A DNA stretch of 64,000 nt from an uncultured Gemmatimonadaceae bacterium (GTDB taxonomy: Bacteria > Gemmatimonadota > Gemmatimonadetes > Gemmatimonadales > Gemmatimonadaceae), in the NCBI GenBank assembly GCA_963817955.1, contig CAWFQK010000004.1:1408001-1472000 (forward strand), in the 5' to 3' direction. The notes beneath the pieces were generated by a model, which saw nothing but the letters and a program-made list of their open reading frames with translations, did no database searches and was not told the origin of the DNA. Both the position numbers and the translations under genes were made by a program. Numbering within the stretch: the first letter of the stretch is position 1; each line of letters starts with the position of its first letter. Of the stretch, positions 15,988 through 64,000 are shown one piece after another.

Positions 15988-15991
15988 GGCA

Positions 15992-48009: not shown

Positions 48010-48698
48010 GTATGTCGCTTATGCGAGAGTTGGGGCGGGCCCGCGCCATGGCTTGGAAGGATCTTCGGACCGAGCGGCGCTCTGCCGCCAACTTCAGCGG
48101 CGTGTTGTTCCTTGCGCTTCTCATGTTGCTGCTGTTCGGTTTTGCCCTCGGACCCGACGCGCAGGCCCTGCGCGACACGGCGGGCGGTATCATCTGGCTA
48201 TCGATCCTGTTCAGCGGGGTGCTGGCGTTCAACCGCTCCTACCAGATCGAACTGGACGACGGTGCGTTCGAGACGCTCCTGCTGTATCCCGGCGCACGAT
48301 GGCCGATTTTCATCGGCAAGCTCACGGCGAACCTGGCGTTCGTGCTCGCGGTTGAACTCGTGGTCGTGCCGCTTGCGGCGGTGCTCTTTCACGTCAACAT
48401 GACGAACGCCGTCCCGCAGCTCGCCGCGGTCCTGCTGCTCGGCACCTTCGGATTTGTGACGCTCGGCACCTTCTACGCCGCGGTCGCCAGTCGCACGCGT
48501 GCCCGCGAAGTGCTACTGCCTCTGCTACTCCTGCCCATGCTCGTCCCGGTGCTCATCGCCGCCGCGAAGGCGACGTCAGCGCTGACGAGCGGCGACATCA
48601 TGGGCGATATGCGTTCTTGGGTCAGTCTATTACTGGCCTTCGACCTGATCTTCTTCACCGCGTCGCTCGCGGTATACGACGTCGTCATCGCTGGATGA
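48006..48698 (+). CDS. ccmB: Heme exporter protein B
   Basis: WKDLRTE..; REVLLPLLLLPMLVPVLI. Confidence 0.9.
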   Translation: MSMSLMRELGRARAMAWKDLRTERRSAANFSGVLFLALLMLLLFGFALGPDAQALRDTAGGIIWLSILFSGVLAFNRSYQIELDDGAFETLLLYPGARWPIFIGKLTANLAFVLAVELVVVPLAAVLFHVNMTNAVPQLAAVLLLGTFGFVTLGTFYAAVASRTRAREVLLPLLLLPMLVPVLIAAAKATSALTSGDIMGDMRSWVSLLLAFDLIFFTASLAVYDVVIAG

Positions 48699-48723
48699 CC
48701 CAACGGGAACAGAGGGGAGATTC

Positions 48724-49479
48724 ATGACACGGGATTTCGCAGTCCAACTCGAGGGCGATCCGGTCGCCGTCGCGGAGCCGCGATGGCTCATGCCGTTAGG
48801 CATTTTTGCGCTCCTCGCGATGGCGGCGGCACAGGCCTACGGCGTCATCACGTCGCCGCCCGATCGTGACATGGGCAACCTGCAGAAGATCATGTACGTC
48901 CACGTGCCCGCGGCGGAGACGGCGTTCCTCTGCTTCTTCATCGTGCTGGTGGAAAGCGTCCGCTACCTCTGGACCTCCGCCGAGCGCCACGACCTGATCG
49001 CCGCTGCCGCCGCCGAGACGGGCGCCGTGCTCACCGCGCTCACATTGATGCTCGGCTCCATTTGGGGTCGCCCAACATGGGGCGTGTGGTGGACCTGGGA
49101 CGCACGCCTGACGTCGACGGCGGTGCTGCTTGTCGTGTTCGTTGGCTATCTCGTGCTGCGCGCCGTCACCGATGATCCCGAGCGCCGGGCCAAGTGGAGT
49201 GCCGCCATCGGCATCCTCGGCGCACTGAACGTACCGATCGTCTACATGTCCGTAAAATGGTGGCGCACGCTGCACCAGATGTCGTCCACGCCAAGCACGC
49301 TGTCGCCGGCGTACGTCATGAGTCTTCGTCTCACCCGCGTCGCGGCAATGCTCGTTGCCATCTACTTTGTCGCACGCCGTTACTACACCGCTCGTCTCGA
49401 ACGCGACAACGAGCAGGCCGCCGATTCCGCGGCGCTTGCCGGCGTCGAAGCCGAGGTTCTGGAGGAGAGTCATGTCTGA
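48724..49479 (+). CDS. ccmC: Heme exporter protein C
   Basis: YVHVP, WGRPTWGVWWTWDARLT and WWRTLHQ. Confidence 0.95.
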   Translation: MTRDFAVQLEGDPVAVAEPRWLMPLGIFALLAMAAAQAYGVITSPPDRDMGNLQKIMYVHVPAAETAFLCFFIVLVESVRYLWTSAERHDLIAAAAAETGAVLTALTLMLGSIWGRPTWGVWWTWDARLTSTAVLLVVFVGYLVLRAVTDDPERRAKWSAAIGILGALNVPIVYMSVKWWRTLHQMSSTPSTLSPAYVMSLRLTRVAAMLVAIYFVARRYYTARLERDNEQAADSAALAGVEAEVLEESHV

Positions 49480-49603
49480 GATGCCCTACGTCGTCGCCGC
49501 CTACGCGGTCACCTGGGTGGTGATCCTCGGATACGCTGGATACCTGGCGGCGCGCACGCGCCAGGCGAAGCGGCTGGCCGGCCATCATTCCAACGGGGGC
49601 TGA
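49472..49603 (+). CDS. ccmD: CcmD-like small protein
   Basis: YVVAAYAVTW TM plus basic tail, between ccmC and ccmE. Confidence 0.75.
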   Translation: MSEMPYVVAAYAVTWVVILGYAGYLAARTRQAKRLAGHHSNGG

Positions 49604-49606
49604 GCC

Positions 49607-50062
49607 ATGGCGACGAAGACGCGCAAGCGTATCGCGCAGGTCGGCGCCCTGGTAGTAGTTCTCGGGACGTTCGGCTGGCTGCTCTACGGCGGCATCGGCA
49701 ATAACCTGGTGTACTTCCTCACGCCGGGTGAGCTGCTTGCCAAAGGCACCGCGGCAATGGACGTGCCGGTGCGCCTCGGCGGACAGATCGTACCGGGATC
49801 GGTCACATGGAACGCGCAGACACTCGATCTTCGCTTCCGCGTCACCGACGGCACGAAGGAAGTGTCGGTACGCTCAACGGGCGCTCCGCCGCAGATGTTC
49901 CGTCCCGGAATCGGCGTCATCGTGGAAGGACGGTACGATCGCAGCGGATTGTTCCAGGCGACCACGCTCATGGTGCGCCACTCGAACGAGTACCATCCAC
50001 CCGCCGCCGGCCATTCGCCGAAGGAAGTGTACAAGACGCTGATCAAGGGGAACGCCTCATGA
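49607..50062 (+). CDS. ccmE: Heme chaperone CcmE
   Basis: NLVYFLTP, VRLGG and HSNEY (HxxxY). Confidence 0.93.
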   Translation: MATKTRKRIAQVGALVVVLGTFGWLLYGGIGNNLVYFLTPGELLAKGTAAMDVPVRLGGQIVPGSVTWNAQTLDLRFRVTDGTKEVSVRSTGAPPQMFRPGIGVIVEGRYDRSGLFQATTLMVRHSNEYHPPAAGHSPKEVYKTLIKGNAS

Positions 50063-52095
50063 TCAGTCTCATTGGGCAGAGCGCGCTGCAGGTGGCGCTC
50101 GCGATCTCCGTGCTCGGCATCATCGCGCTGCTCGCCGGCGGCAAGAAGGGGTCGCCGTCGATGCTCAGCGCCGGGTATGCTGCGGTCTACAGCAGCTTCG
50201 CGCTCGTCTGCGTGTCCACGATGGGAATGCTCGTCGCACTCGTCACGCATGACTTCAGCGTATCGTACGTGGCGCAAGTCGGAAGCCGCTCGACGCCGTT
50301 GTTCTTCACGATCATTTCCCTCTGGAGCGCACTCGAAGGCTCAATCCTCTTCTGGGGATTCTTGCTGTTCGGCTGCGCCGCACTCGCCGTACGTCTGCAC
50401 CGTAACGAACCCGGCCAGACCCTGCGCTATGCCGCCGCAACGTTGCTCGCGATCGGCGTGTTCTTTCTCATCCTGCTCATCGGCCCGGCGAATCCGTTCC
50501 ATCTCATCAGCCCGACGCCGGCTGACGGACCGGGTCCCAACCCCCTGTTGCAGAATCACCCGCTGATGGCGGTGCACCCACCGCTCCTCTATCTGGGGTA
50601 CGTCCTGTTTTCGGTGCCCTTCGCCTTGGCGGTCGGCGCCATGGTCTCCGGTGAAGTCGCGACGGATGGCTGGGTGCGCAGCGCGAAAGTGTGGACCGTG
50701 GCGGCGTGGATGTTTCTCTCTGCCGCGATCATTGCAGGCATGTGGTGGTCCTACGAAGTCCTCGGCTGGGGCGGCTATTGGGCGTGGGATCCCGTCGAGA
50801 ACGCGTCGTTCATGCCTTGGCTCACCGCGACCGCTTTTCTGCACTCCATTCTCGTGCAGGAACGACGCAAGATGCTGCGCGTCTGGAACCTCAACCTCAT
50901 CGTGGTGACGTTCGTGCTCACCGTGCTGGGCACGTTCCTTACCCGCAGCGGCATCCTGTCATCGGTGCACGCGTTCACGCAGGGAACCATCGGATACTAC
51001 TTCCTGGCGTTCATCGCGGTCGTGTTGGTGGGTTCGCTGGCACTCGTCGCCGGTTACGCGCCCGAGCTGCGCCAGCGCGGCTCGCTCGAGGACGTAGTCT
51101 CGCGAGAGACAGCATTCCTCTTTGCCAACCTCCTACTCAGCGTCATCACCTTCACGGTGTTGCTCGGCACGTTGTTCCCACTGGTCGCCGAGGCCATGCG
51201 CGGCATCAAGGTGTCCGTTGGAGCACCGTTCTTCAATCGCATGACCCTGCCGGTGATCATGGCCGTCATCTTCCTGCTCGGTGTCGGCCCGGGGCTACCA
51301 TGGCGGCGCACCGATCGGACGAAGCTCCGGGCTCAGATGCGCGGACCCGCCGTCGCAGGCGTGATTGTGGCGGTCATCGCACTCGTGGTGGGAGCGCGCG
51401 ACGTGTACGCAGTCCTCGCGTTCTCGCTCGGCGCGTTCGCTATGGTGACCAATCTTCAGGAATTCTGGATTGGCACGCGAGCGCGCATGCGTGCGCACGG
51501 TGAGCACGCGTTCACCGCGCTCGTTCGACTCACGGCCGCCAACCGACAGCGCTACGGCGGCTACATCGCCCACATCGGCGTGCTGGCCGCGGTCATTGGC
51601 ATCGCTGCGTCTTCCTCGTTCAAGACGGAGCGCGAGATCACGCTGACACCCGGTCAGACAGTGACGGTCGGTGGGCACGTGCTGCGTCTCGATAAGGTGT
51701 GGGGTCGCCAGGACGCCGGTCGCACGTCGATCGGCGCCGACATCTCGCTGTTGAACGATGGTCGTGTGATTGGCCATCTCGAGCCGCAACAACACTTTTT
51801 CGAATCCTCAGAACAACCGATTCCCACGCCGGCAGTCCGCAGCAATGCGCTGCACGACGTGTACGTCAATCTGATGGCCTTCAAGGAAGACGGATCGTCG
51901 GCGACGATTCGTGTGCTCATTGAGCCACTGGTGGCGTGGATCTGGGCGGGCGGTGGAATCGTGTGTCTGGGTGCGCTCGTTGGCTTGTGGCCCCGCAAGA
52001 AGCGGGTAGCACCCGAAGCGGTCGTGGCCCAAGCCCCAGCTCGCGCGGGCAGTCGGGCCAGTGCGGCAAATGTGCCGGCCGAGGTGGCGCCATGA
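50059..52095 (+). CDS. ccmF: Heme lyase CcmF
   Basis: GPNPLLQNH..HPP, WGGYWAWDPVEN and TRSG..SVHAF. Confidence 0.95.
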   Translation: MISLIGQSALQVALAISVLGIIALLAGGKKGSPSMLSAGYAAVYSSFALVCVSTMGMLVALVTHDFSVSYVAQVGSRSTPLFFTIISLWSALEGSILFWGFLLFGCAALAVRLHRNEPGQTLRYAAATLLAIGVFFLILLIGPANPFHLISPTPADGPGPNPLLQNHPLMAVHPPLLYLGYVLFSVPFALAVGAMVSGEVATDGWVRSAKVWTVAAWMFLSAAIIAGMWWSYEVLGWGGYWAWDPVENASFMPWLTATAFLHSILVQERRKMLRVWNLNLIVVTFVLTVLGTFLTRSGILSSVHAFTQGTIGYYFLAFIAVVLVGSLALVAGYAPELRQRGSLEDVVSRETAFLFANLLLSVITFTVLLGTLFPLVAEAMRGIKVSVGAPFFNRMTLPVIMAVIFLLGVGPGLPWRRTDRTKLRAQMRGPAVAGVIVAVIALVVGARDVYAVLAFSLGAFAMVTNLQEFWIGTRARMRAHGEHAFTALVRLTAANRQRYGGYIAHIGVLAAVIGIAASSSFKTEREITLTPGQTVTVGGHVLRLDKVWGRQDAGRTSIGADISLLNDGRVIGHLEPQQHFFESSEQPIPTPAVRSNALHDVYVNLMAFKEDGSSATIRVLIEPLVAWIWAGGGIVCLGALVGLWPRKKRVAPEAVVAQAPARAGSRASAANVPAEVAP

Positions 52096-52688
52096 GATGG
52101 AAACCTGCGGTCGCCGCGGCAGCGTTGGCAATTCCGGCCATCGCGTTGTTCGGTTTCGGTCTGACACGCGACCCTGGGGCGATTCCATCGCCACTTCCCG
52201 GGCGTGCCGCACCAACGTTCGTGCTTCCCGCATTCACGAGCGGCGAGCCGACGGAAACGCATCCCGGAAACATCCCGCAGGTGGACACGGTGCGGCTCGC
52301 CGCGCTGCGTGGGGATGTCGTCGTGCTGAACTTCTATGCATCGTGGTGCCTCGCCTGCCGCGACGAGCACTCGGTGCTCTCTCGAGTGGCGTCGCGGTAT
52401 GTCGGTAGCGACGTGCACTTCAATGGCGTGATCTACAACGACCAACCCGGCGCCGCGTTGCAGTGGCTGAAGGAAATGGGGCCGCTGCCGTATCCATCAC
52501 TTGTCGATCCGGGCTCGCATACGGCAATCGATTACGGTCTGTACGGCGTGCCTGAGACGTTCTTCATCGATCGCAACGGCCAAGTCGCGGATAAGCACGT
52601 TGGTCCGGTAACGGACAGCGTGCTCGTTGCCGAGATCGAGCGCCTGCGTGCGCAGCCGAAAACGGCCGCGAAGGCAGGCGCCCAATGA
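52092..52688 (+). CDS. ccmG: Thiol-disulfide oxidoreductase CcmG/DsbE
   Basis: LNFYASWCLAC and YGVPETFFID. Confidence 0.9.
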   Translation: MRWKPAVAAAALAIPAIALFGFGLTRDPGAIPSPLPGRAAPTFVLPAFTSGEPTETHPGNIPQVDTVRLAALRGDVVVLNFYASWCLACRDEHSVLSRVASRYVGSDVHFNGVIYNDQPGAALQWLKEMGPLPYPSLVDPGSHTAIDYGLYGVPETFFIDRNGQVADKHVGPVTDSVLVAEIERLRAQPKTAAKAGAQ

Positions 52689-53143
52689 TCAGCGCTCGCC
52701 TGCCTCGCCTGTTCGGCATCCTGGTGACAGTCGCGTTTTCCACGGCCTCCCTCGGCGCGCTGCATGCGCTGCCCGCCCAGCAGCCGCCGCTCGCTCCGGC
52801 CGCCGCCGCGGAATCAACCCTTGATGCGCGCACGCGCGCCGTCGCTTCGGATCTGCGGTGTCCGGTATGCCAAGGACTTTCCATCCAGGACTCGCCATCG
52901 GAACTCGCGCAGCAGATGCGCGATCTGGTGAAGCAGCAACTCGACTCCGGCCGCTCGCCCGCTCAGATCAAGGACTACTTCGTCGGCCGATATGGTGAGT
53001 GGATTCTCATGGCACCGGAAGCGCACGGCTTCAACTGGCTGGTGTATCTCCTTCCATTTCTTGTGCTCGGATTCGGCGGATGGATCTTGTTGGTGGCACT
53101 CCGGCGATGGACGGTGAGCAAGGACGTCGATGCCAATCCGTAG
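52685..53143 (+). CDS. ccmH: Cytochrome c biogenesis protein CcmH
   Basis: LRCPVCQ..DS..RYGEWIL. Confidence 0.92.
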   Translation: MISARLPRLFGILVTVAFSTASLGALHALPAQQPPLAPAAAAESTLDARTRAVASDLRCPVCQGLSIQDSPSELAQQMRDLVKQQLDSGRSPAQIKDYFVGRYGEWILMAPEAHGFNWLVYLLPFLVLGFGGWILLVALRRWTVSKDVDANP

Positions 53144-53174
53144 ACGTTAGCATTGTGGATCGAAGCTGATGTGG

Positions 53175-53206
53175 GAACGGCACACCATCTCGGTGTGCCG
53201 TTCTTT
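53175..53206 (+). terminator. Terminator after the ccm operon
   Basis: GAACGGCACACC-ATCTC-GGTGTGCCGTTC-TTT. Confidence 0.75.
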
Positions 53207-53217
53207 GCATGCACAGG

Positions 53218-53300
53218 AAACGAGACATGGGATACGAGACACGGGGCACGGGACACGAGATGCCTGTCGTCCTGAGCGAAGCGAAGGATCTCTGTGACCG
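53218..53300. repeat. Heptamer repeats plus one arm of the GTC.TCCTGAGCGAAGCGAAGGATCTC repeat
   Basis: ACGAGAC/ACGGGAC units followed by the same arm as in the element copies. Confidence 0.7.
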
Positions 53301-53507
53301 GCTGGCTTGACGAGGACCTTCGGCAGAATACGCGCGCCCCTGTCATGAAACACCTGACTGTGTTCGGGCACCGAGCCGACTGGAGACGCGCGAGGGGGGC
53401 GCGATACTGATTCCACACACAGGCGTGTGGGGCAGTTGATGAACCGGCTTGGAACGGTCTGCGCGAGATCCGTGAGACCGATTCCCTGAATCTTGGGAGA
53501 GAGATAT

Positions 53508-54962
53508 ATGTCACGCCGTATTACTCGAGTCGCGCAATTCGGCGCACTCCTCGCTGCGTCGGTCGCGATCGCCGCATGCGTGAATGACAATGTGGTATAT
53601 CGCGACCGGGCGCTGACCGTATCGGCACCACCCGCGGGGGCTGGCTTCGTCGGCTACACCGACACGGCGACCAAGCAGACCGCCTGTGGCAATTGTCACG
53701 TCGAGCAGCAAGCGAAGTGGGCGACCACGAAGCACGCCAGCGCGTGGGCAGACCTGCAGGCCAGCGGCCATTCGAGCAGTGCCTGCGAATCTTGCCATGC
53801 AGTGAGTAACCTGGGCAATGGAGTCGCCGACTCGAACGTCGCGTACGCCGCCACGAAGGACACTCGGTATACCGACGTTCAGTGCGAGAACTGCCACGGT
53901 CCTGGCCAGCAACACGTATCGACTCCGGCTATCACAAACCGGCCGCTCGCGTCGATCCAGGTGGACACGGGGACGAAGGACATCAACGGCTGCGGCCAGT
54001 GCCACACTGGTACGCACGAGCCGTTCGTGGACGAATGGAAGCAGACGTTCGCGCAGGGACACGCGCACCTCGAAGCGCACGCGCTCACGAGCACCGATCC
54101 CACGTGCGTGACCTGTCACACCGGTCAGGGCGCGCTCCTCAAGTTCAACGTCAACACTGCGTATAAGGAGAAGGATCAGATCACGACGAACCCGGTGGCG
54201 ATCACCTGCGCCGTGTGTCACGATCCGCACGCAGCGACAGTCGGCAAACAGCTGCGCTTCGCCATTGACACTCCCGATCCGACGCGGAATCTGTGCATGC
54301 AGTGCCACAATCGCGATTCGGGCCCGAATCCAACCTCATCGCGTGGACCGATGACTCCGGAGACGGCGACGTTGCTCGGTACCGCCGGCTGGTGGCCGCC
54401 GAACCTCACGCTTGTCGACACGTCCGCCATTCTCGCGACGCACGGCTCGAGCTCGAACACCAGATTGTGCGCTACGTGCCACGTGGTCAGAACTGCGGTC
54501 AACGATCCGAAGACTGGCAGCTTCGTATTCCAGGCGACCGGACACAACTTTGCCGCAATTCCCTGCTTGGACGCGAACGGCAAGCCGACGACTGGTGACT
54601 GTGCCATCTCCCAGCGAACCTTCACGGCGTGTGCCGGCAGCGGTTGCCATGCATCGGACGTCGTCGGCCGGTCGCTGTATATCACCGACAGCCTACGCAT
54701 CGCGGCGCTCGAGACGACGCTGAGCGGCCAACTGGGCAAGGCTCCGGCGAGTTCGCTTAACTACACGAGCACCACGCTCACAACGGCTAAGGGTGCGACA
54801 TGGAATCTGCAGGTCGCACAGAAACCAGGCGCATGGATCCACAATCCATTCCTGATTGAGGCGCTCCTCACGGCCTCGATCAAGCAGATGACGCTGGACT
54901 ACGGGATCGCACCGAGCACCAGCATCTCACTCGACAACATTCTGCGTCGGCGGATTCGGTAA
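53508..54962 (+). CDS. Multiheme c-type cytochrome lipoprotein (8 CxxCH + 1 CX4CH)
   Basis: Lipobox IAAC; motifs counted by eye. Confidence 0.88.
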   Translation: MSRRITRVAQFGALLAASVAIAACVNDNVVYRDRALTVSAPPAGAGFVGYTDTATKQTACGNCHVEQQAKWATTKHASAWADLQASGHSSSACESCHAVSNLGNGVADSNVAYAATKDTRYTDVQCENCHGPGQQHVSTPAITNRPLASIQVDTGTKDINGCGQCHTGTHEPFVDEWKQTFAQGHAHLEAHALTSTDPTCVTCHTGQGALLKFNVNTAYKEKDQITTNPVAITCAVCHDPHAATVGKQLRFAIDTPDPTRNLCMQCHNRDSGPNPTSSRGPMTPETATLLGTAGWWPPNLTLVDTSAILATHGSSSNTRLCATCHVVRTAVNDPKTGSFVFQATGHNFAAIPCLDANGKPTTGDCAISQRTFTACAGSGCHASDVVGRSLYITDSLRIAALETTLSGQLGKAPASSLNYTSTTLTTAKGATWNLQVAQKPGAWIHNPFLIEALLTASIKQMTLDYGIAPSTSISLDNILRRRIR

Positions 54963-54992
54963 CCGACGGGCGGTAGGTTGGATCAGCACGGG

Positions 54993-55037
54993 ACGTACGC
55001 GGGCCGGAGGTTACCAAACCTTCGGCCCGTGGTACGT
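54993..55037 (+). terminator. Long hairpin downstream of the 8-heme gene
   Basis: ACGTAC.CGGGCCGGAGGTT / AACCTTCGGCCCG..GTACGT; no U-tract. Confidence 0.55.
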
Positions 55038-55284
55038 AGAGGACCGTTGGATGGCATACGCCGTTCGCGACAACCCCAGCCCGTGTGTGTCCGTCCGATG
55101 CCGATGGCCACCGTCCGTGATCCCGCACACGCCGCACAGAGTTCTCCGATGACGTCGCGCACCCACACGGTGTTATGTACATCTGCGAATATGGCGGGCG
55201 CTACTCTGGCGCCCACGCGCGACGGTCCCGCAGCCATTACAAGGCGACCGCCATCAGCGCGTTCCCTTTGCACCTGGCGGTCAG

Positions 55285-56718
55285 GTGATCGTGACACGAT
55301 ATATTGCGCGGGCACGCTCGATAGGCGCTGATCTTTGGGCCGCCTCGGCGATGCTGGCATTCATCTTCGCGCTGCTCGCGGCGGCCGCGCCATTGTGGGC
55401 GCAGGGGCCGCGGCTGGTAGCATCACGCGGCGGCGTGCAGTGCCAGAAGTGCCACGCCAACCATGAGTTTCTGGTGGGCAAAGCAAGAACGGAGCGAGGC
55501 GACTCGGCGCTGTATGTGCCAGACACGCTCCTGCGCGACTCGCGCCATGCAAAACTCAGTTGCGCCGACTGCCACCCTGGCTATGACAAAGGGTATCCGC
55601 ACAACGCGACTGTCGTGGCCGTGCCCTGTCAAAGCTGCCACGAGAAGGAAGGCCTGGCATGGGCACGCTCGATCCATGCGCCGAACGCCAAGACTGTCGG
55701 CGACGCTCCGACGTGCGTGAGTTGCCACACGCAGCACCACGTGCTCGGCGTCGAGGACCCTCGCTCGCCCACGTACGCGCTGAACGTGGCCAAGACGTGC
55801 GGAAAGTGCCACAGTGACCGCCGAATCATCGGCACGTACTTCACGAAGGCGAAGGATGCGCAGGCGCGAACGGCAGTGGCGGAGTACTACAAGACGGTTC
55901 ATGGCATAGCGAGCACCAAGTCCGGCCTGGTGGTATCTGCGACGTGCAACGACTGTCATGACGCACATCTCATCCTTCCGCCCGATTCGTCCGAGTCCAC
56001 CATCAATCGCGCGCACGTGGCGGCAACGTGCGGCGCGTGCCACGCCGGTGTGCTCGCAACCTTCGACTCGTCTTCGCATGGGCGGGCGTTCGCCTCGGGC
56101 AAGAAGACCAACACCGGTCACGCGGCGCCGGTGTGCATCGACTGCCACGCTGGACACAAGATCGTGGCCGCTCGCGACTCGGTGTGGTTTCGGGGCGTAG
56201 TGGCCGAGTGCGGCTCATGTCACGAACGACTGACCAAGACTTACTTCGAGACATACCACGGCCAGGTGACTGAGCTTGGCTTTGGGCTCACGGCCAAGTG
56301 CAGTGATTGCCATACCGCGCACTCAATGCTCCCACCCACCGATCCACGGTCGTCGGTGAACGCGGCCAACCTCGTAGCGACGTGCAGCAAGTGCCACGCG
56401 GGCGCGAATGCCAAGTTCGTGCAGTACATGCCGCACGGCGATCCACAGAATCGCGCGAAGAACCCCGGGCTGTTCTGGGTCTGGTTGTTCATGACGTCGC
56501 TCCTGGTGGGAGTATTCTCGTTCTTCGGCCTCCACACATTCCTGTGGCTGATGCGCCTGACATTGGATCGGCTGCACGGGGGCGGTGCGGCCAAGCCTCC
56601 GGTAGCAGAGCCCGTGACGGAGAGTGGTGAGGAGCATGCCGGTGTTCGCGCACCAGAAACAACAATCGCCGGCACGAGGCGCGAGCCTATCGGGCCCGGA
56701 ACTCGGGAGAAGCAATGA
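55285..56718 (+). CDS. 11-heme periplasmic cytochrome c with C-terminal TM anchor, CbcL-like (start may be 55351)
   Basis: 11 CxxCH; TM ending FFGLHTFLW. Confidence 0.88.
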   Translation: MIVTRYIARARSIGADLWAASAMLAFIFALLAAAAPLWAQGPRLVASRGGVQCQKCHANHEFLVGKARTERGDSALYVPDTLLRDSRHAKLSCADCHPGYDKGYPHNATVVAVPCQSCHEKEGLAWARSIHAPNAKTVGDAPTCVSCHTQHHVLGVEDPRSPTYALNVAKTCGKCHSDRRIIGTYFTKAKDAQARTAVAEYYKTVHGIASTKSGLVVSATCNDCHDAHLILPPDSSESTINRAHVAATCGACHAGVLATFDSSSHGRAFASGKKTNTGHAAPVCIDCHAGHKIVAARDSVWFRGVVAECGSCHERLTKTYFETYHGQVTELGFGLTAKCSDCHTAHSMLPPTDPRSSVNAANLVATCSKCHAGANAKFVQYMPHGDPQNRAKNPGLFWVWLFMTSLLVGVFSFFGLHTFLWLMRLTLDRLHGGGAAKPPVAEPVTESGEEHAGVRAPETTIAGTRREPIGPGTREKQ

Positions 56719-57626
56719 GCAACGAGCCGTTCGTTACGGCGGCGACGGCGATTCCCGTCTCCGTGAGAGGTACCGAGGCCAAACCACTGGCTGTATCCGA
56801 CCAGGGCGCTGGGCCGTACATCCGCCGCTTCGGAGCGGTGGAGCGTACGACGCATGCGCTCGTGATGGTCTCGTTCTTCGGCCTCGTAATCACGGGCGTG
56901 CCCCTGCGCTTCGCATCTGCGCCCTGGGCCGTACCGCTCATGCAGTTCCTGGGGGGCGCAGCCGCAGCAGCGGTTCTGCACCGGTTTTGCGCCGTGATCA
57001 CGTTCGGTTACTTCGGGCTGCATCTGGGCATGGTCGTCAAGAATTTCATGCGCGCCGAGAGCAAGTTGTCGATCTTCTGGGGCCCTCGCTCAATGGTGCC
57101 GCAGCCGAAGGACATTCGAGACGTCATCGGCATGTTCCGCTGGTTCATCCGCGGCGGAGTCCGTCCGAAGTTCGACCGCTACAGTTACATGGAAAAGTTC
57201 GACTATTGGGCCGTGTTCTGGGGTGTCGGAATCATCGGCGGTTCAGGCCTGCTGCTCTGGTTCCCGACATTCTTCTCGCATGTTCTGCCCGGGTGGGCGT
57301 TCAACGTTGCGACGATCGTTCACGGCGACGAAGCACTGCTCGCGCTTGGCTTCATCTTCACGATCCATTTCTTCAACGTTCACTTCCGACCCGAGAAATT
57401 CCCGATCGACCTGGTGATCTTTACCGGCCGCGCACGGGCGGAGTACTTCGAGGAAGAGCATCCGCTGGAATACGAGCGAGAACTGCACTCCGGCCGGTTG
57501 GCCGCATTGCAGACATCGGCCCCATCGCGATCGACGTACCTCTGGTCGATGGCGTTCGGATTCGCGGCCCTTGCGCTGGGCGTGTTCCTGGTTGGCCTGG
57601 TCATCTACGCAGTGTTGAGAGGATGA
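56715..57626 (+). CDS. Membrane b-type cytochrome (FdnI/CbcL-type)
   Basis: ERTTH, LHRF, FDRYSYMEKFDYWAVFWG, VHGDEA..IHFFNVH and EEEHPLE. Confidence 0.9.
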   Translation: MSNEPFVTAATAIPVSVRGTEAKPLAVSDQGAGPYIRRFGAVERTTHALVMVSFFGLVITGVPLRFASAPWAVPLMQFLGGAAAAAVLHRFCAVITFGYFGLHLGMVVKNFMRAESKLSIFWGPRSMVPQPKDIRDVIGMFRWFIRGGVRPKFDRYSYMEKFDYWAVFWGVGIIGGSGLLLWFPTFFSHVLPGWAFNVATIVHGDEALLALGFIFTIHFFNVHFRPEKFPIDLVIFTGRARAEYFEEEHPLEYERELHSGRLAALQTSAPSRSTYLWSMAFGFAALALGVFLVGLVIYAVLRG

Positions 57627-59095
57627 ACGCGTTTCGGCGCGGCGTAGCCGGCGGCCTGTTCGTCAGGCTCGCCCGCGCCGTTGCCGTCGGCTTGCTCGTT
57701 GGCATCAGCGGAAGCGCACTCACGAGCTGTTCTTCCAGCGCGCCGCCGCCTCGAGCGACGCGCGACACCACGGCGCATGTCGCAGTGTTGCAGGGCAGCG
57801 ACCGGGACGCGCCCACGCGTGTGCTGAGCACCGAATGTACGGATTGCCATCCGCATACGCATGACGCCGTGCTCGGCCGCGGCCCGTCAGCATCAGCACG
57901 GTGTGGCGCGTGCCACGCGTCCGTCCACGACACGATCCAGGCGCTGTACGCTGGCCTGACGCGCCGCGCCGCAGTGCGGCCCGATCCCATGTTCGTGGCG
58001 CGCGTTCAGTGCGCCGAGTGCCATTCTGATACGACGCTGGCCATGCGTGCCGGCGCCGCGCGACTGGCAGCCGTCGATCGCGCGTGTACGAGCTGTCACG
58101 GCCCCAAGTTCGTGGGCATGCTCCCGCGATGGAGCACGGGAATGCAGTGGCGTACCCGCGCCGTATCGGAATACGTGAATCGTGCTGCGGCCGACCCGCG
58201 GCTCACCACGGCCCCATCTGCCCGCGCACGCATCCAGGCTGCGAAACAGACAGTGATCCTGGTGACGACCGCCGGCGCTCTGCACAACGTGCGCGGTGCC
58301 GATGCCCTGCTCCGTAGCGCACTCGATAGCGCAGCGGCCGCGTACACCGGCCCCGGCCTGGCCGTGCCGGAGCGTCCGACGCTCGGTCCCGATCCCGCAC
58401 GCGTCTCGTGTGTCGGGTGCCACTATGGCATAGAGGGCGCTCGCGATTCTGTGTTCGGTCAGCCCTTCGATCACAGTGCGCATGTGTTGCGTGGCAACGT
58501 GGCATGCAATGCATGCCATAGCGCTGTCGACTATATCGTGCCCGGCAAGCACGAGGTGGACAAACGACACGGCAGGACGATGGTCACGCCTGCGTCGTGC
58601 AACGCATGCCACCACAATGCGACGTCCGCCGTGGCGTGCAGCACGTGTCACGCGGGCGATGCGCGGCTCGCACGCGCAATCCGCGTGGCAATGCCGCTGC
58701 GCCTCCGCCCGCCGAACGCGCCGACGTCTCGCGACGTGGCGTTCGAGCATCGTGACCATGCGAAGGTAGAGTGCGCGAGCTGCCATACCGCGCGCACGGC
58801 GGTGCGCACCACCGCGGCGTGCGCGACCTGTCATCAGACCCATCATGTCGCGGTAGCGCAGTGCATGAAGTGCCATGGGTCGGACATGCACGCGGCGCAC
58901 AAGGCTGCGGACCACCTGGCGTGCACCAATTGCCACGCCCGCGAGACCCTGGCACTGCTCACCCCCGACCGCAGCTTCTGCGTGAGCTGCCACGCGGATC
59001 GCGCCGCACACAAGGGCGGCCGCGAGTGCTCGGCGTGTCACATGCAAAGCACGCCGTCAGAGCTGCGCAAGAGAATTCTCAGCGGAACGCGCTGA
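57623..59095 (+). CDS. 14-heme c-type cytochrome, probable lipoprotein
   Basis: ATGA overlap with the cytochrome b stop; LTSC lipobox; 14 CxxCH. Confidence 0.88.
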   Translation: MNAFRRGVAGGLFVRLARAVAVGLLVGISGSALTSCSSSAPPPRATRDTTAHVAVLQGSDRDAPTRVLSTECTDCHPHTHDAVLGRGPSASARCGACHASVHDTIQALYAGLTRRAAVRPDPMFVARVQCAECHSDTTLAMRAGAARLAAVDRACTSCHGPKFVGMLPRWSTGMQWRTRAVSEYVNRAAADPRLTTAPSARARIQAAKQTVILVTTAGALHNVRGADALLRSALDSAAAAYTGPGLAVPERPTLGPDPARVSCVGCHYGIEGARDSVFGQPFDHSAHVLRGNVACNACHSAVDYIVPGKHEVDKRHGRTMVTPASCNACHHNATSAVACSTCHAGDARLARAIRVAMPLRLRPPNAPTSRDVAFEHRDHAKVECASCHTARTAVRTTAACATCHQTHHVAVAQCMKCHGSDMHAAHKAADHLACTNCHARETLALLTPDRSFCVSCHADRAAHKGGRECSACHMQSTPSELRKRILSGTR

Positions 59096-59105
59096 TCGCG
59101 GGCAC

Positions 59106-60899
59106 ATGGGACTATTCTCCAAGGATCTCGTTCTCCTGCATCCGCCGTCAGTCTACGACTTCCGGCGGAACGGCACGTTGTTCGGCCCAATCAGCGACGT
59201 CATTCCATCCACGCCGGTGTTCGAGATGTATCCGATGGGTTTCACCACCATCGCCGCGCATCTCGAGAACGCGGGCTTCAACGTGGAGATCGTCAACATC
59301 GCGTACCGGATGTTGTCGGACGCCACATACGACGCCGAAGCTGCGATTGCCGCCTTGCATCCGCGCATCTTCGGCATTGATCTCCACTGGCTGCCGCACG
59401 CGCATGGCGCGCTGGAACTGGCGCGCATCGTCAAGAAGCACCACCCTGGGACGCCCGTCGTCATGGGCGGCCTGTCCGCGTCGTACTTCCACGAGGAGCT
59501 CGTCCGGTATCCCTGGGTCGATTACGTACTGCGCGGCGACTCGACTGAGGAGCCGATCCTCCAGCTGATGCAGGCGCTGCAAAGCGGCGACCCACCGACG
59601 GCGGTGCCGAACCTCACGTGGATCGACGCGCGCGGAGAGGTGGTGGTGAACCCGCTCACCCACGTGCCGGACGACATCGACGACATCGCCATCCCGAATT
59701 ACCGGTACGCGATTCGGTCGGTCTTCAAGTACGCGAGTCTGGCGAACGTCATTCCCTTCGTCGATTGGATGAGCTATCCGATAACCGGGCTCCTGACGTC
59801 GCGAGGGTGTTCGTTGGACTGCTCCATCTGTGGCGGGTCGCGGAGCGCGTACCGCACCATGTGCAACCGCCGGCGGCCGGCATTCCGCTCGCCGGAAGCC
59901 CTGATCCGCGACATCCGGCAGATCCGGGAATTCAGCGACGCGCCGATCATCCTGCTGAACGATATCCGCCATGGCGGCCGGGCCTATAGCGAACGTTTCC
60001 TCGATTTGCTGGAGCGCGAGCGCGCGCCGAACGAGATCATCTTCGAGTTGTTCTGGCCGGCGGACGACGCGTTCTTCGAGCGTGTCGCCCGAGCGTCGCC
60101 GCGGTTCAGCCTCGAGATGACGCCGGAGAGTCCAGACGAGGGGCTGCGACGCATCAACGGCAAGTTTGCGTGCACGAACGCGGAGATCGAGGACACCGTG
60201 GCGGCTGCGCTTCGCCATGGCGTGAATCGGATTGACATCTTCTTCATGGTCGGTATCCCCCGCCAGACCTATCTGCAGGCGGTCGGCGCCGTCGACTACT
60301 GCCGCGAGCTACTCGAGAAGTTCGCCGGTGACCACCGCCTGGCATTCTTCGTAGCTCCTCTCGGCCCGTTCCTCGATCCGGCGAGCCGGGCATTCGAGCA
60401 TCCAGAACAGTTCGGCTATCGACTCATTCACCGCACGCTCGAAGAGCATAGACGCGCGCTCACATCGCCGAGCTGGAAATACCTGCTGAACTATGAGATG
60501 GAGACGATGAGCCGTGACGACATCGTGGATGCGACGTACGAGTCGGCGCTACGGCTTGCTCGGCTCAAGCGCGACTACGGCTATATGGACGACGCCACGT
60601 GCGCCGAGCTCTCGGCGCGCATCGAGGCATCGCGCCACGCAATCGCCGAGGTGGACTGCATTCTCGCTCTGCCAGAAGGCGAGAACCGCGAGGATCGCCT
60701 CGCAGCCGTGCGCGCACGTTTCGCGGACTTGCCCGCGCAGACGGTGGCCGTGAAGCAGGAGCTCTTGCGCTGGCCAACCCCCGGGGGGTTCGCCAGCTCG
60801 GTGCGGCTGGCGCAGCTGGGCGCGCGGCTCATGCGCACAGAAGTCTATCTGTTCTCGAAGCGTGTGCGGCGGCTGTGGGCCGCACACGCCGATCCGTGA
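59106..60899 (+). CDS. B12-binding domain / radical SAM protein (resembles the TIGR04190 family)
   Basis: LLHPPSVYDFR..FEMYP.G, GIDLHWLPH, VMGGLSAS and RGCSLDCSIC. Confidence 0.88.
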   Translation: MGLFSKDLVLLHPPSVYDFRRNGTLFGPISDVIPSTPVFEMYPMGFTTIAAHLENAGFNVEIVNIAYRMLSDATYDAEAAIAALHPRIFGIDLHWLPHAHGALELARIVKKHHPGTPVVMGGLSASYFHEELVRYPWVDYVLRGDSTEEPILQLMQALQSGDPPTAVPNLTWIDARGEVVVNPLTHVPDDIDDIAIPNYRYAIRSVFKYASLANVIPFVDWMSYPITGLLTSRGCSLDCSICGGSRSAYRTMCNRRRPAFRSPEALIRDIRQIREFSDAPIILLNDIRHGGRAYSERFLDLLERERAPNEIIFELFWPADDAFFERVARASPRFSLEMTPESPDEGLRRINGKFACTNAEIEDTVAAALRHGVNRIDIFFMVGIPRQTYLQAVGAVDYCRELLEKFAGDHRLAFFVAPLGPFLDPASRAFEHPEQFGYRLIHRTLEEHRRALTSPSWKYLLNYEMETMSRDDIVDATYESALRLARLKRDYGYMDDATCAELSARIEASRHAIAEVDCILALPEGENREDRLAAVRARFADLPAQTVAVKQELLRWPTPGGFASSVRLAQLGARLMRTEVYLFSKRVRRLWAAHADP

Positions 60900-60903
60900 A
60901 CCT

Positions 60904-62916
60904 CTAACCTCCTACATGCGCCACCACTGCCGCCTTTGCGTTCCCCATCGGCGGCACTTTGTGGCACGACTCGCACGCACGACCAGGCTTGTGGTTCGTC
61001 TGCGCTACGTGGCACGTCGTGCACACCTGCCGCGACCAGTGATCCACGGCTGGCACTGACTTGTGACACTGAACGCACGCGACGTGATCGGTCGCCTTGT
61101 GCTTTGCCAGTGAGCCGCCACGATGACAGCTGAGGCATGCCGCCTGGGGCTGGTGGTGCTGCGCATGGCAGTTGTCGCAGTTCAGCGCACGCGCGCTCAT
61201 GGCCGGCGCCGTGTGGCACGCGCTGCATGCGACCTTGGCGGCGAGATGGGAGGCGTGCGTGAAGTCACCAGCGGGCGCGTGCAGCGTGTCGACCGGAACG
61301 CCCCCTGGGCCGGCATGGCACTGCGCACAGTTGCGCGCCTGCGCCTGCACGGACGGATGGTGGCACGCGTCGCAACTCGCCGCTGACTTGATCGTCGTGC
61401 CGCCGTGATCGGCGAATGACGTGTGACAGCCACTGCACTGGAGCCCGGCACGCAACACATGCTGCGAGTGATCGAACGACCGGCCGTCCAAGATGCCGCG
61501 CTGCTGCTCCACGCCCATGTGGCACTGCAGACATTCGTTATCGCTCACCGGCGGCCCCAGATTCACCACCGGCATGCGATACGACAGGTGCGTGTCGTCC
61601 GCCGCTTGGCGCACGAGCTCGAGCGAGCTCCGCAGCAACCCGTCGGCGTAGCTGATATTGTGCACGCCTTTGCCCGCGCGCACGAGCGCAATGTTCTCCG
61701 CCGCCATTCCGAGCAGGCTGTCGGCGACGGCGCGCTGGTTCAACGGCAACGCCACCGCCGCAGCGCGCGCTTGCTGCATGACAGGCTCCACCAGATTCAG
61801 CTTCCGATCCATCGCGCGCTGCCAGCTCGGAAGCATGTTTGCGTAGCGGACGCCGTGGCAAGACAGACAGGCGGACTCGTTCGCGACCTGCACCGTGCCG
61901 TGACCGGGCTTTCGAGACGCGTCGTTGTGGCATCCCACGCAGGAGACGCGGGCCTTGTACATCGAGCTCGGCCCCTTCTGCGTGAGATGTCCGCCGGTCC
62001 CGGCGTAGAGCTTCTGCTGCGCGACATGCGTGTTCTGATGGCAGCTCTTGCAGTCCAGCTCCACCGTGGTCGAGACGGAAATGATCCGGTGATCGATCCC
62101 GGTGTGGCATTGGACACACGCGATGTTCTCCTGCCCCACGTGCACTTTGTGCAGCATGGGCGAGTCCGTGATGCGCGCCAGTCGAGCGGGTTCGTTGTGG
62201 CAGGTGACACACCGGGCCGCATCCACGTTACCGGTGCCCTGGGTGACTTCGTTGTGGCATGACAGGCAGTCGATCCGATCCTTGACGTACTGCGGATGAT
62301 CGACGACGAAGCCCTCTTTGGAGTTGACCCGCGGCGGCGCGGGATGGCAGCCGGTGCAGGTGGCAAGCGGCTGGCCGTTGGGACGCCCCTTGAAGTGGCA
62401 GAGGACACAGGTGTTCTCGGTGACGGCAATGTGCGAGCCCTGCACGATCTGCGAGTGACAACTGGTGCAGTGCAGCTCAATGCCGCGACGCACCTGCCCG
62501 AGGTGACGTGTATGGTCAAAGCGTACTCCTTTGTAATCCACCTGCCCCTCGATGAGCCGCGTCGAGTGGCAGCCCGAACGGAGGCACGCCGCGTCATCCA
62601 TCTTCGCCCAGGGGCGAGTGTTGGCAGTACCAGTGAAGTACTTCACCACCATGTTCGCGGCCTGCACCTTGGTCATCGCCTCGGCTTTGATGCCCGGGGC
62701 GATGTGGCACTTGATACAGGCCACATCGCGATGCGTCGACTTCGTCCACGAGTCATGGTACGGCTTCATGATGTGGCAGCTACCGCAGAACCACGGTTGG
62801 CTGGACACCTGAACGAACGCGGTTGTGCTGACAGCAAGCAGGATGATGCCGAGGATGACTACAGGAACCGCGATGCGCGCAGCTCGCGACACCCGCCTAC
62901 GGGCTGTGGGCGACAT
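60904..62916 (-). CDS. Membrane-anchored multiheme cytochrome with NapC/NirT-like N-terminus (21 CxxCH + 1 CX4CH)
   Basis: N-terminal TM; SQPWFCGSCHIM..W..STH..CIKCH. Confidence 0.9.
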   Translation of the reverse strand: MSPTARRRVSRAARIAVPVVILGIILLAVSTTAFVQVSSQPWFCGSCHIMKPYHDSWTKSTHRDVACIKCHIAPGIKAEAMTKVQAANMVVKYFTGTANTRPWAKMDDAACLRSGCHSTRLIEGQVDYKGVRFDHTRHLGQVRRGIELHCTSCHSQIVQGSHIAVTENTCVLCHFKGRPNGQPLATCTGCHPAPPRVNSKEGFVVDHPQYVKDRIDCLSCHNEVTQGTGNVDAARCVTCHNEPARLARITDSPMLHKVHVGQENIACVQCHTGIDHRIISVSTTVELDCKSCHQNTHVAQQKLYAGTGGHLTQKGPSSMYKARVSCVGCHNDASRKPGHGTVQVANESACLSCHGVRYANMLPSWQRAMDRKLNLVEPVMQQARAAAVALPLNQRAVADSLLGMAAENIALVRAGKGVHNISYADGLLRSSLELVRQAADDTHLSYRMPVVNLGPPVSDNECLQCHMGVEQQRGILDGRSFDHSQHVLRAGLQCSGCHTSFADHGGTTIKSAASCDACHHPSVQAQARNCAQCHAGPGGVPVDTLHAPAGDFTHASHLAAKVACSACHTAPAMSARALNCDNCHAQHHQPQAACLSCHRGGSLAKHKATDHVACVQCHKSVPAVDHWSRQVCTTCHVAQTNHKPGRACESCHKVPPMGNAKAAVVAHVGG

Positions 62917-62919
62917 CGG

Positions 62920-64000
62920 TTATGGCTCCTCGTTCCCGGCGCCGCGGCGAAGCGCTCGCAGCGTGAGCCACGCCAGCGCGACCGCCGCCAACGAGAGGAA
63001 CCATACGGGGAGCAGCAGCAGCTTGTGCTCCAACAGCACCTCCTCGCTTGCGGCCGACATGCGATCGAGCTCGATCGATGCCGCGCTCACGCGACTCTCC
63101 TGGTTCTCAACGCGCTCGAGATCGAGCCCGTGCTGCACCTGTGCGATCTGTAGGTAGTCAGTGAGTGCCGACTGGTAACGGAAGCGCGCGTCGCTCGTGC
63201 GCTGCCCCGAAACCGCAAGACGGTCCACGGCGCGCTCGGCCGACCGCAGGTCCGAGGTCGCCTGCATCATGCGACGCTGCAGGTCTACACCGACCTGGTG
63301 TAGCTTCGTGTCGCGAGCGTGGCACCGGTCGCACATCGCGGAGATGCTGTCGTCAGCAATACGCTGCGTGCCGTGGTTCCCGTGGCACGCCAGGCACCCT
63401 TGGATCCGCCCCGCGCGCGTGGCGGGCCCGTGCGGCCCAGCATTGAATGCCTGTGCCACGAGCTGGTGGCAACTGCCGCAGACGCTCGACACCTCGGTGC
63501 GCGTGGGCGGCAGCGCCGAATGCGCACCGTGGCAAGCTACGCACGTTGGGGCGGCAAAGTCCCGCTTCTCGAACAATGTCTTGCCGTGCGCGCTGTTGCG
63601 GAACTGGTCGAGCTGGTCGGTACGCAAGTTGTACTTCTGCATCAGCCGCGTGTTGGCATGGCAGTGCCCGCACGTGGTTGGGATGTTGGTCGGATACACG
63701 CGACTGCGCGCATCGTACGGCGGATAGATGATGTGCGTGCCATGACAATCGGTGCACGTTGGTGCATCGACGTTGTTCCCCGCGAACAGAAGCTGCCCGT
63801 GGCGGCTGGTGCGGAACTCCGCGAGCTGGCCGGTGGGCAACCCATACTCGCGCATCCTATTTGGATCAGAGTGGCATGAGCCGCACAGCCGTGCAACAGC
63901 TACCTTGTTCAGCGCGCCGGTGAAGCCGTTGCCGTGCGCCGCGGGAAGGAGGCGTGCAGAAGGATCGCCGCCGTGGCAGTCGACACAGCGCACGCCGTGC
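62920..64000 (-). CDS. Multiheme cytochrome c (at least 8 CxxCH) with C-terminal coiled coil and TM; 5' end outside the window
   Basis: Open frame to the window edge; APTC..CH repeats. Confidence 0.85.
   Translation of the reverse strand, partial: HGVRCVDCHGGDPSARLLPAAHGNGFTGALNKVAVARLCGSCHSDPNRMREYGLPTGQLAEFRTSRHGQLLFAGNNVDAPTCTDCHGTHIIYPPYDARSRVYPTNIPTTCGHCHANTRLMQKYNLRTDQLDQFRNSAHGKTLFEKRDFAAPTCVACHGAHSALPPTRTEVSSVCGSCHQLVAQAFNAGPHGPATRAGRIQGCLACHGNHGTQRIADDSISAMCDRCHARDTKLHQVGVDLQRRMMQATSDLRSAERAVDRLAVSGQRTSDARFRYQSALTDYLQIAQVQHGLDLERVENQESRVSAASIELDRMSAASEEVLLEHKLLLLPVWFLSLAAVALAWLTLRALRRGAGNEEP

Follow-up and report, generated by a model that had tools for sequence, protein, structure and literature searches.

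The distal part (positions 53508-64000) of a 64,000-nucleotide stretch of genomic DNA from an uncultured Gemmatimonadaceae bacterium (contig CAWFQK010000004.1; the whole stretch is hereafter called the window) carries a compact set of multihaem c-type cytochromes together with a membrane cytochrome b, which on balance we favour reading as a respiratory conduit conserved in Gemmatimonadota, in which electrons would pass between the quinone pool and long haem wires of the periplasm, probably with an extension to the cell surface. This phylum ranks among the commonest in soils and sediments, and its cultured members are aerobic heterotrophs. An initial annotation, made from the nucleotide letters alone, had proposed a multihaem system connecting the quinone pool with the periplasm or outer membrane in a lineage not known for such equipment; this proposal is supported by the analysis given here, and anaerobic or extracellular respiration would be its physiological counterpart.

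Five open reading frames (ORFs) of the region contain 62 in-frame CxxCH motifs (8, 11, 14, 21 and 8 in order of position), which is exactly the count of the initial annotation, where the last number had been given as at least 8. Two extra Cx4CH sites, CAGSGCH in P0001 and CLRSGCH in P0006, accompany them, and the stretch as a whole encodes about 65 haem sites. With all six frames considered, CxxCH occurs 64 times in 53508-64000 versus 3 times in 1-53507, while over 200 mononucleotide shuffles of the region (G+C of about 64%) the mean was 0.46, with no shuffle exceeding 3. The seven genes, designated P0001 to P0007, are laid out as two convergent operons meeting 4 bp apart: P0002/P0003 and P0003/P0004 overlap by 4 bp each, P0004 and P0005 are separated by 10 bp and, on the opposite strand, P0007 and P0006 by 3 bp. 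Two other frames were rejected as genes. An 823-aa ORF at 56624-59095 owes its size to a frame that stays open upstream and overlaps the cytochrome b gene, the start of the real product being the lipoprotein signal at 57623, and an Arg/Pro-rich ORF of 117 aa between P0001 and P0002 (54978-55331) was judged non-coding by eye. Scanning of positions 52600-64000 for promoter-like sites (0, with a shuffle mean of 2.0) and for terminator-like sites (6 versus 5.5 in shuffles) was uninformative.

Cytochrome modules and their Rieske-like partners

Conservation of the cluster was followed by means of a genome scan with P0006, which gave seven loci. Five of them (L001-L005) belong to Gemmatimonadota metagenome-assembled genomes (60-69% identity) and two (L006 and L007) are distant (23-26%); all were oriented with P0006 on the plus strand, the left flank thereby representing what should follow position 64000 of the window. 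The distant loci contain different systems and were excluded from the synteny comparison: L006 (Ignavibacteriaceae) encodes an NrfC/NrfD-like pair with a 13-haem protein, and L007 (Saprospiraceae) encodes proteins with 23 and 73 CxxCH. In the latter (L007:7128-14404) the gene of the 23-CxxCH protein is followed by an ORF of 1820 aa with the 73 motifs, beside a maturation gene of ResB/CcsA type.

The cytochromes of the two convergent operons are related pairwise. P0004 aligns with residues 267-652 of P0006 (33% identity, E 1e-57), and P0002 with P0007 (28% identity, E 2e-23), both of the latter ending in a transmembrane helix; therefore each operon holds an anchored protein of 9-11 haems and a 14-haem wire. 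The two sets are paralogous modules rather than a single linear chain. Their separability follows from locus L002, where the modules lie about 6 kb apart with sugar-metabolism genes between them.

Module 1 is composed of the 11-haem P0002 (55285-56718, plus strand; 477 aa with a signal peptide and a C-terminal transmembrane helix), the membrane cytochrome b P0003 (56715-57626, plus; 303 aa) and the 14-haem lipoprotein P0004 (57623-59095, plus; 490 aa, lipobox LTSC), while P0005 is the last gene of the operon. The b-type cytochrome recognized in the initial annotation holds up at family level, P0003 matching PF01292 above the cutoff (31.9 bits versus 30.1) and the formate dehydrogenase gamma model TIGR01583 with E 5e-9, below the cutoff of that model. 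It appears to have five helices, three found by hydropathy threshold and two His-bearing ones by eye, and six of its His residues (47, 89, 103, 203, 218 and 223) are invariant in the four aligned sequences (4/4). These features suggest a dihaem cytochrome b of FdnI/HydC type acting as the quinone-reactive subunit of module 1, for which P0002 would be the c-type subunit and P0004 the haem wire. The C-terminal helix of P0002 (396-414) carries His417, likewise invariant in 4/4 aligned sequences. As a separate observation, P0003 belongs to the cytochrome b family of hydrogenases and formate dehydrogenases, and in L001 genes for the small and large subunits of a NiFe hydrogenase (L001:19211-22195) adjoin module 1.

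Contact between these two membrane subunits is also predicted by modelling. For P0003 with residues 300-440 of P0002 the interface score ipSAE was 0.84, 0.84 and 0.83 in the runs, versus 0.00 for the best of three controls; the pass mark used admits 116 of 157 solved complexes and 2 of 215 mismatched pairs, counts which hold only roughly for a model built on custom alignments of four rows. The runs shared at least 98% of contacts with a partner pLDDT (predicted local distance difference test) of at least 83, and in the modelled interface the P0002 helix 393-428, holding H417, lies on residues 181-226 of P0003. Such a pass attests to likeness and is not proof of binding, because solved relatives of the arrangement exist, which we take to be formate dehydrogenase N (FDH-N) and NiFe hydrogenase.

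L001, L002 and L003 each contain module 1, with cytochromes b 72-77% identical, and P0004 has orthologues in L001-L004. P0005 (59106-60899, plus; 597 aa), a co-operonic gene missing from the list of the initial annotation, encodes a B12-binding radical SAM protein, matching TIGR04190 over residues 7-516 of 597 (682.9 bits versus the cutoff of 500) along with PF02310 and PF04055. In L001 and L002 its orthologues (79% and 73%, respectively) neighbour the gene of the 14-haem protein; L004 has a 42% relative and L003 none. Among Atlas clusters the family is commonest in Bacillota, Chloroflexota and Actinomycetota, and it is too broad for a function of P0005 to be read from this look-up.

Published systems are compared here as described in those portions of the cited papers that concern them. 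CbcBA of Geobacter sulfurreducens consists of a dihaem b subunit and a 7-haem c subunit, the C-terminal helix of CbcA lending a His to a b haem of CbcB (10.1101/2021.04.15.440034), and in CbcL the b and c parts are fused into one protein with 9 haems and 6 transmembrane helices (PMC6295460). Module 1 resembles them in the translational coupling of P0002 and P0003, in the C-terminal helix with its invariant His and in the passing complex model; it differs in having 11 haems on P0002 instead of 7 or 9 and in an operon that also includes the genes of the 14-haem P0004 and the radical SAM protein P0005, the comparison being one by description and not by sequence orthology. No NCBIfam model named after CbcB, CbcA or CbcL matched the proteins of the window, and no regulator of sigma54/BccR type was seen beside module 1.

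Module 2 is represented in the window by P0006 (60904-62916, minus strand; 670 aa with an N-terminal transmembrane helix, 21 CxxCH and the additional CLRSGCH) and P0007 (62920-63999, minus; at least 359 aa with the 5' end beyond the window, 8 CxxCH and a C-terminal transmembrane helix). P0006 is a P0004-like wire of 14 haems fused to an N-terminal transmembrane helix and about 7 haems. It matches PF03264 (37.7 bits versus the cutoff of 24.1), and its residues 15-83 align with NrfH (2j7a_C) including FCxSCHIM and the second CxxCH; TIGR03153 (NrfH) reached 50.2 bits versus a cutoff of 134.2, and napC_nirT gave no match. The NapC/NirT-like anchor listed initially corresponds to the N terminus of the 21-haem protein and is no extra gene. 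The same applies to the two lipoproteins mentioned alongside: the lipoboxes IAAC and LTSC are there, but their carriers are the 8- and 14-haem cytochromes themselves. Set against the quinol dehydrogenases NrfH, NapC, CymA and ImcH, the domain of P0006 has the N-terminal helix, CxxCHxM and a second CxxCH in alignment with NrfH; it differs by fusion to about 17 further haems, and by one transmembrane helix in place of the three described for ImcH (PMC6295460). Of 6256 candidates, 815 are homologues of P0006 at E<=1e-3, and five Gemmatimonadota plus one partial "Dormibacteraeota" record make up the six organism-named entries of the 120 listed. The family is widespread in Gemmatimonadota.

What should follow position 64000 was taken from the relatives. 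Full-length orthologues of P0007 (L001, L002 and L003) have about 440 aa and 9 CxxCH. Directly upstream of them, in 4/4 loci with upstream DNA (L001-L004), lies a gene for a PF00033 cytochrome b (E 1e-44 to 1e-47); the one in L001 is closest to cytochrome b6 (7r0w_I, E 3e-49), and its C-terminal part resembles subunit IV or the cytochrome b C terminus. The cytochrome b gene is in turn preceded, in 3/3 loci reaching further, by that of a membrane-anchored Rieske-fold protein of 156-187 aa, with full-length but below-cutoff matches to Rieske Pfam models (E 1e-3 to 5e-2), Rieske_2 among them (E 1e-3 to 3e-3 in 3/3). Rieske, cytochrome b and then a C-terminally anchored c-type protein is the classical order of bc (pet/fbc) operons. 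By position, P0007 would occupy the place of cytochrome c1 or f in a Rieske-like / cytochrome b / cytochrome c operon.

Among the 97 matches of the Rieske-like family none (0/97) has the CxH...CxxH pair of 2Fe-2S ligand motifs, while two Cys are invariant in 97/97 and exactly two are present in 95/97. Taking "YD..G.V..G" as register for the canonical motifs, the retained pair would, in our own reading of the alignment, correspond to the disulfide Cys, all four cluster ligands being replaced. Alignment of the relatives' cytochrome b shows both His pairs (helices B and D) retained, whereas PEWY is found in 0/4, the residues aligned to the mitochondrial PEWY being STW[L/I/V] in 4/4. Since these hallmarks of bifurcation at the Qo site are lost, module 2 is read as a linear quinone:haem-wire oxidoreductase and not as a Q-cycle complex; in residue terms, its operon would not encode a canonical bc complex. 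A further member of the Rieske-like family, P0407, has 154 aa and is 71% identical to the L001 protein. In the Rieske-like part of L002 the neighbourhood of the window is also seen to recur, a V-ATPase subunit I gene lying directly beside the Rieske-like gene (L002:4224-6128).

The nearest published precedent for module 2 is Geobacter GSU2930-2937, which encodes a Rieske Fe-S protein, cytochrome b and cytochromes of 2, 10, 12 and 5 haems (PMC2825233). The likeness is that a Rieske-family protein and cytochrome b are accompanied by a number of large multihaem cytochromes and not by a lone c1, an arrangement that module 2 keeps in L001-L004. Unlike the Geobacter set, however, the Gemmatimonadota Rieske-like proteins are devoid of ligands and the cytochrome b is devoid of PEWY, the haem counts are 9 and 21, P0006 carries its own NrfH-like membrane domain, and the cytochrome b and Rieske-like genes are off-window.

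The lipoprotein P0001 and a predicted outer-membrane barrel

The initial annotation had seen no catalytic terminal subunit. A candidate surface-directed component is P0001 (53508-54962, plus strand), to which the barrel gene beside its L001 orthologue can be added. P0001 is a protein of 484 aa with the lipobox IAAC, 8 CxxCH and CAGSGCH, that is, nine likely haem sites. In an alignment of 44 sequences (P0001, the L001 orthologue and those 42 of 150 listed representatives whose match spans most of the query) the lipobox Cys24, all eight CxxCH and the Cx4CH are invariant (44/44); among cluster representatives 2456 relatives were found at E<=1e-3 and 111 at E<=1e-30. Compared as a profile with the PDB, P0001 is best matched by OmhA (6qvm_A, E 7.5e-26) and OcwA (6i5b_A, E 1.5e-20) over positions 91-467, far ahead of chain A of the Mtr complex entry 6r2q (E 3e-12) and c554 (4e-10), with hydroxylamine oxidoreductase (HAO, 2e-8), octahaem nitrite reductase (1e-6) and NrfA (2e-4) coming further down. 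An AlphaFold2 model (pLDDT 87.8, predicted TM-score (pTM) 0.84) has C-terminal helices at 384-409, 426-438 and 447-465, and only two PDB structures matched it at E<=1e-3, both OcwA chains (TM-score 0.45-0.46, E 7.5e-7), NrfA structures coming next. Homology of P0001 to OcwA/OmhA extends over the haem core as well as the C-terminal helical bundle, and the CxxCK motif of NrfA occurs in it 0 times.

OcwA and OmhA are described as surface metal reductases of Gram-positives within the NrfA superfamily (PMC6703420, PMC9250108). By family relationship P0001 is the likely terminal oxidoreductase and a candidate for facing outward, and its lipobox indicates membrane anchoring, at a membrane and face that would be those of the outer surface under this reading. 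OcwA of Thermincola potens (6I5B) has nine haems, as many as the likely sites in P0001; the differences are that OcwA and OmhA of Carboxydothermus ferrireducens (6QVM) are S-layer or cell-wall proteins of Gram-positives whereas P0001 is a diderm lipoprotein, that the TM-score is only 0.45 and that one P0001 haem site is Cx4CH. Further marks of OcwA and OmhA are two penta-coordinated haems with distal His-His motifs.

Read in order, L001 carries ccmFGH, the orthologue of P0001 (59% identical), the gene of a 500-aa protein, that of a cytochrome with 16 CxxCH and the Rieske-like operon. The 500-aa product (L001:3803-5305), placed between the P0001 orthologue and the 16-haem gene, has a signal peptide and no Pfam family; 386 matches make up its family, all organism-named rows among the 120 listed (8/8) are Gemmatimonad*, and the nearest Atlas clusters are labelled "hypothetical protein", with Gemmatimonadota as the commonest phylum where this is known. 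The homologue P0140 (58% identical to the L001 protein), modelled with AlphaFold2 from 50 of the 120 listed sequences, has 27 strand elements after the signal helix (pLDDT 83.2, pTM 0.76), and its fold search gave at least 361 PDB matches at E<=1e-3, of which all listed are outer-membrane barrels with TM-scores of 0.3-0.46. A designation as MtrB-like was rejected, the matches being those of a generic outer-membrane barrel fold. The initial annotation was right that the window contains no porin: tblastn with P0140 against the 64 kb found nothing better than E 6.2. When L001 is compared with the window, a single inversion, that of the segment bounded by P0001 and the 11-haem gene, accounts in our own reading for the different arrangement. 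It predicts that the barrel and 16-haem genes are located shortly after the window ends, on the far side of the genes for cytochrome b and the Rieske-like protein. P0140 and P0407 are each on a contig of 1,711,990 bp, and the contig of the window is also given as 1,711,990 bp, an equality of length that hints at the presence of the barrel and the Rieske-like gene in the same genome as the window.

The L001 locus resembles MtrCAB, Geobacter Pcc and PCC3/PCC4 in the row formed by a lipoprotein cytochrome, a large barrel and a 16-haem cytochrome beside quinone-reactive b-type proteins, the overall logic being shared with PCC3/PCC4 as these are outlined in PMC5566968; the Gemmatimonadota barrel differs from known porin-cytochrome conduits in having no Pfam family and generic fold matches and in being off-window. 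On the window proteins no family model of MtrA, MtrB or MtrC reached its cutoff, decahem_SO attaining at most 53.9 versus 192.2 and OmcA/MtrC at most 29.9 versus 209.3.

Proposed electron path and its competitors

In the model that we favour, the dihaem cytochrome b P0003 of module 1 would exchange electrons with (mena)quinol and pass them to the 11-haem P0002, whose C-terminal helix is predicted to pack on P0003, and from there the 14-haem lipoprotein P0004 would carry them onward, P0005 being co-transcribed. P0007 with 9 haems and P0006 with 21 would form the tail of the module 2 operon, which would start just beyond the window with two genes, those of a Rieske-fold protein without Fe-S ligands and of a b6-like cytochrome b without PEWY. 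Such a module would run no bifurcating Q cycle and would operate as a linear quinol:multihaem oxidoreductase, or catalyse the reverse reaction, while P0006 would add to it an NrfH-like quinol site of its own. Both modules would then load periplasmic wires of 14 to 21 haems, and P0001 would serve as the terminal oxidoreductase, partnered in at least one relative by the large outer-membrane barrel and the 16-haem cytochrome. More than one entry point for quinones, as supposed in the initial annotation, is borne out by P0003 with P0002 and by the NrfH-like N terminus of P0006, to which the off-window b6-like cytochrome b of the relatives may be added. With their different b-type subunits, the two modules may parallel ImcH, CbcL and CbcBA of Geobacter, each of which is specific for a redox potential.

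Several points weigh against this picture. The passing complex model may reflect memory of solved b-subunit complexes of FDH-N or hydrogenase; the structural models consist of protein only and contain no haems; the fold match of the barrel is generic, and the Mtr entry 6r2q is absent among the matches listed; and the window itself lacks genes for a porin, a cytochrome b6 and a Rieske-like protein. The barrel and P0001 adjoin the cluster in only one of the four relatives' loci, and L002 and L003 are without P0001 and barrel within 10 kb, so this part is either accessory or located elsewhere in those genomes. Finally, P0001 could be a periplasmic enzyme, because OcwA and OmhA form a clade within the NrfA/HAO/MccA superfamily, whose reductases act on soluble substrates (PMC9250108, PMC6703420), and OcwA shows in vitro activity with nitrite and hydroxylamine (PMC9250108).

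The last point leads to the main rival explanation, respiration of a soluble N- or S-oxyanion or similar acceptor in the periplasm, where P0001 would be a reductase like NrfA, octahaem nitrite reductase (ONR) or MccA fed by two quinol-dehydrogenase modules and nothing would leave the compartment; nitrite, hydroxylamine, NO, sulfite or tetrathionate come into consideration as substrates. Besides the in vitro activity of OcwA, it draws on the matches of the P0001 profile to c554, HAO, octahaem nitrite reductase and NrfA, on the place of NrfA as next in the fold search, and on porins, which are missing from the window and from the vicinity of the cluster in L002 and L003. We nevertheless hold it to be unlikely: OmhA and OcwA are the best sequence matches by at least 10 orders of magnitude, the lipobox is retained throughout the alignment, a barrel and a 16-haem gene flank the L001 orthologue, more than 50 wire haems are far above the need of such a reductase, and CxxCK does not occur.

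Somewhat less probable still is an inward flow, in which Fe(II), Mn(II), humics or a partner would donate electrons and quinone would be reduced at the cytochrome b subunits, as proposed for iron oxidizers with MtoAB, PCC3 or PCC4, although the hardware itself is equally compatible with this metal-oxidizing direction and the sequence sets none. Proteins of CbcL, MtoC and MtrH type are reported from both Fe(III) reducers and Fe(II) oxidizers (PMC6295460); PCC3/PCC4 of iron oxidizers comprise a porin, very large multihaem cytochromes and a b-type membrane protein of about 300 aa and five helices (PMC5566968); and the text of a survey on marine Gemmatimonadota states that annotation cannot separate iron reduction from oxidation (PMC11316326). 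A cytochrome b without Qo site could, moreover, reduce quinone at Qi. On the other side, domains of NrfH/NapC type and ImcH are so far known as quinol oxidases (PMC6295460), and P0003, inspected by eye, has HX13H (89/103) and HX14H (203/218) but not the WX3HX13H found twice together with SGXXG in the membrane protein of PCC3/PCC4 (PMC5566968). No marker of carbon fixation or lithotrophy was seen in the Pfam scan of the window, beyond which no aimed search was made.

An ordinary complex III, in which P0007 and P0006 would merely supply the c-type cytochromes to a canonical Rieske/cytochrome b complex of aerobic or denitrifying respiration, is very improbable, for although the gene order is the classical pet/fbc one, the cytochrome b keeps both His pairs and the family member P0452 is named "ubiquinol-cytochrome c reductase iron-sulfur subunit" by its NCBI source, the 2Fe-2S ligands are absent in 97/97 and PEWY in 4/4, the Rieske Pfam matches are sub-threshold, 30 haems sit on two subunits, and module 1 with P0001 is left unexplained. 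The initial annotation had anticipated that downstream genes of a known complex might account for the visible subunits; a cytochrome b (4/4) and a Rieske-fold protein (3/3) do follow in the relatives, yet such a complex does not explain them fully because of the lost ligands and PEWY and the haems attached.

The conduit that we prefer over these alternatives is read as a variant of known extracellular-electron-transfer clusters not previously described in the literature found. In one survey Gemmatimonadetes contribute one CbcL-type and two ImcH-type homologues (PMC6295460), MtrCAB is reported from single Gemmatimonadetes genomes (PMC8805035; PMC11316326), and in marine Gemmatimonadota FeGenie matches to "DFE_461-465" and Cyc2 are widespread and those to MtrABC few, the direction of iron cycling being left undecided (PMC11316326). 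As far as their texts go, the surveys flag only generic extracellular-electron-transfer matches in the phylum. A cave metagenome paper of 2026 mentions porin-cytochrome clusters including petB and petC, in its text not tied to Gemmatimonadota (PMC13264449). The literature search, in the texts it covered (supplementary tables and figures lay outside its scope), found no description of the two-module architecture, of a cluster-less Rieske partner or of the barrel family.

A bolder formulation, possible but doubtful in our estimation, is that of a lineage-wide, undescribed extracellular respiration of Gemmatimonadota. There, a Rieske/cytochrome b complex, after losing its Fe-S cluster and its Qo site, would have turned into a quinol:haem-wire oxidoreductase that does not bifurcate and whose two c-type subunits hold 30 haems. 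An FdnI-type paralogue would duplicate this module, perhaps for another range of redox potential, and electrons from both would reach an OcwA-like lipoprotein by way of outer-membrane barrels of a new family. A cluster-less Rieske subunit retained as a structural component would in itself be a new kind of bc-complex derivative. Already on the reading favoured above, a conserved conduit with some 65 haems, an OcwA-like terminal protein and two or three entries for quinone would open to Gemmatimonadota a route to electron exchange with minerals, humics or partner cells, changing the assignment of soil iron and manganese cycling to taxa. The joint loss of Rieske ligands and PEWY may be regarded as a natural experiment on a cytochrome b complex without a Q cycle.

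Genes adjoining the cluster

The cytochrome genes are located directly after a System I ccm operon, as was initially noted. It occupies 47278-53143 on the plus strand, in the order ccmA, B, C, (D), E, F, G, H, and is separated from P0001 by 365 bp. Its products match ABC_tran, CcmB, Cytochrom_C_asm, CcmE, CcmF_C, Redoxin/AhpC-TSA and CcmH of Pfam, while ccmD is given only as a candidate, an ORF of 43 aa with a single transmembrane helix (49472-49603, plus) that overlaps the end of ccmC and would likely complete ccmA-H. In L001 ccmF, G and H are likewise found directly upstream of the P0001 orthologue.

On its other side the ccm operon adjoins an operon for a V/A-type ATPase (38184-46000, minus). 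Upstream of the latter are genes of stress type at 31593-32897 (minus), 36223-36702 (minus) and 37052-38194 (plus), encoding a tandem universal stress protein, HSP20 and a product with a sub-threshold match to baeRF_family10 (bacterial eRF1-like).

Further towards the window start, an ORF for the molybdopterin-containing alpha subunit of formate dehydrogenase (17899-19890, minus) is interrupted by an in-frame TGA at 19606-19608. Its context, SCNRT-TGA-HAPSVVG, is what we take to be the classic selenocysteine site of FdhA. The Fe-S N-terminal domains of this enzyme are encoded by a separate ORF (14971-16059, minus) that comes after a NuoE/F-like gene, and the formate dehydrogenase ORFs are followed by fdhD and then by a gene for formate-tetrahydrofolate ligase.

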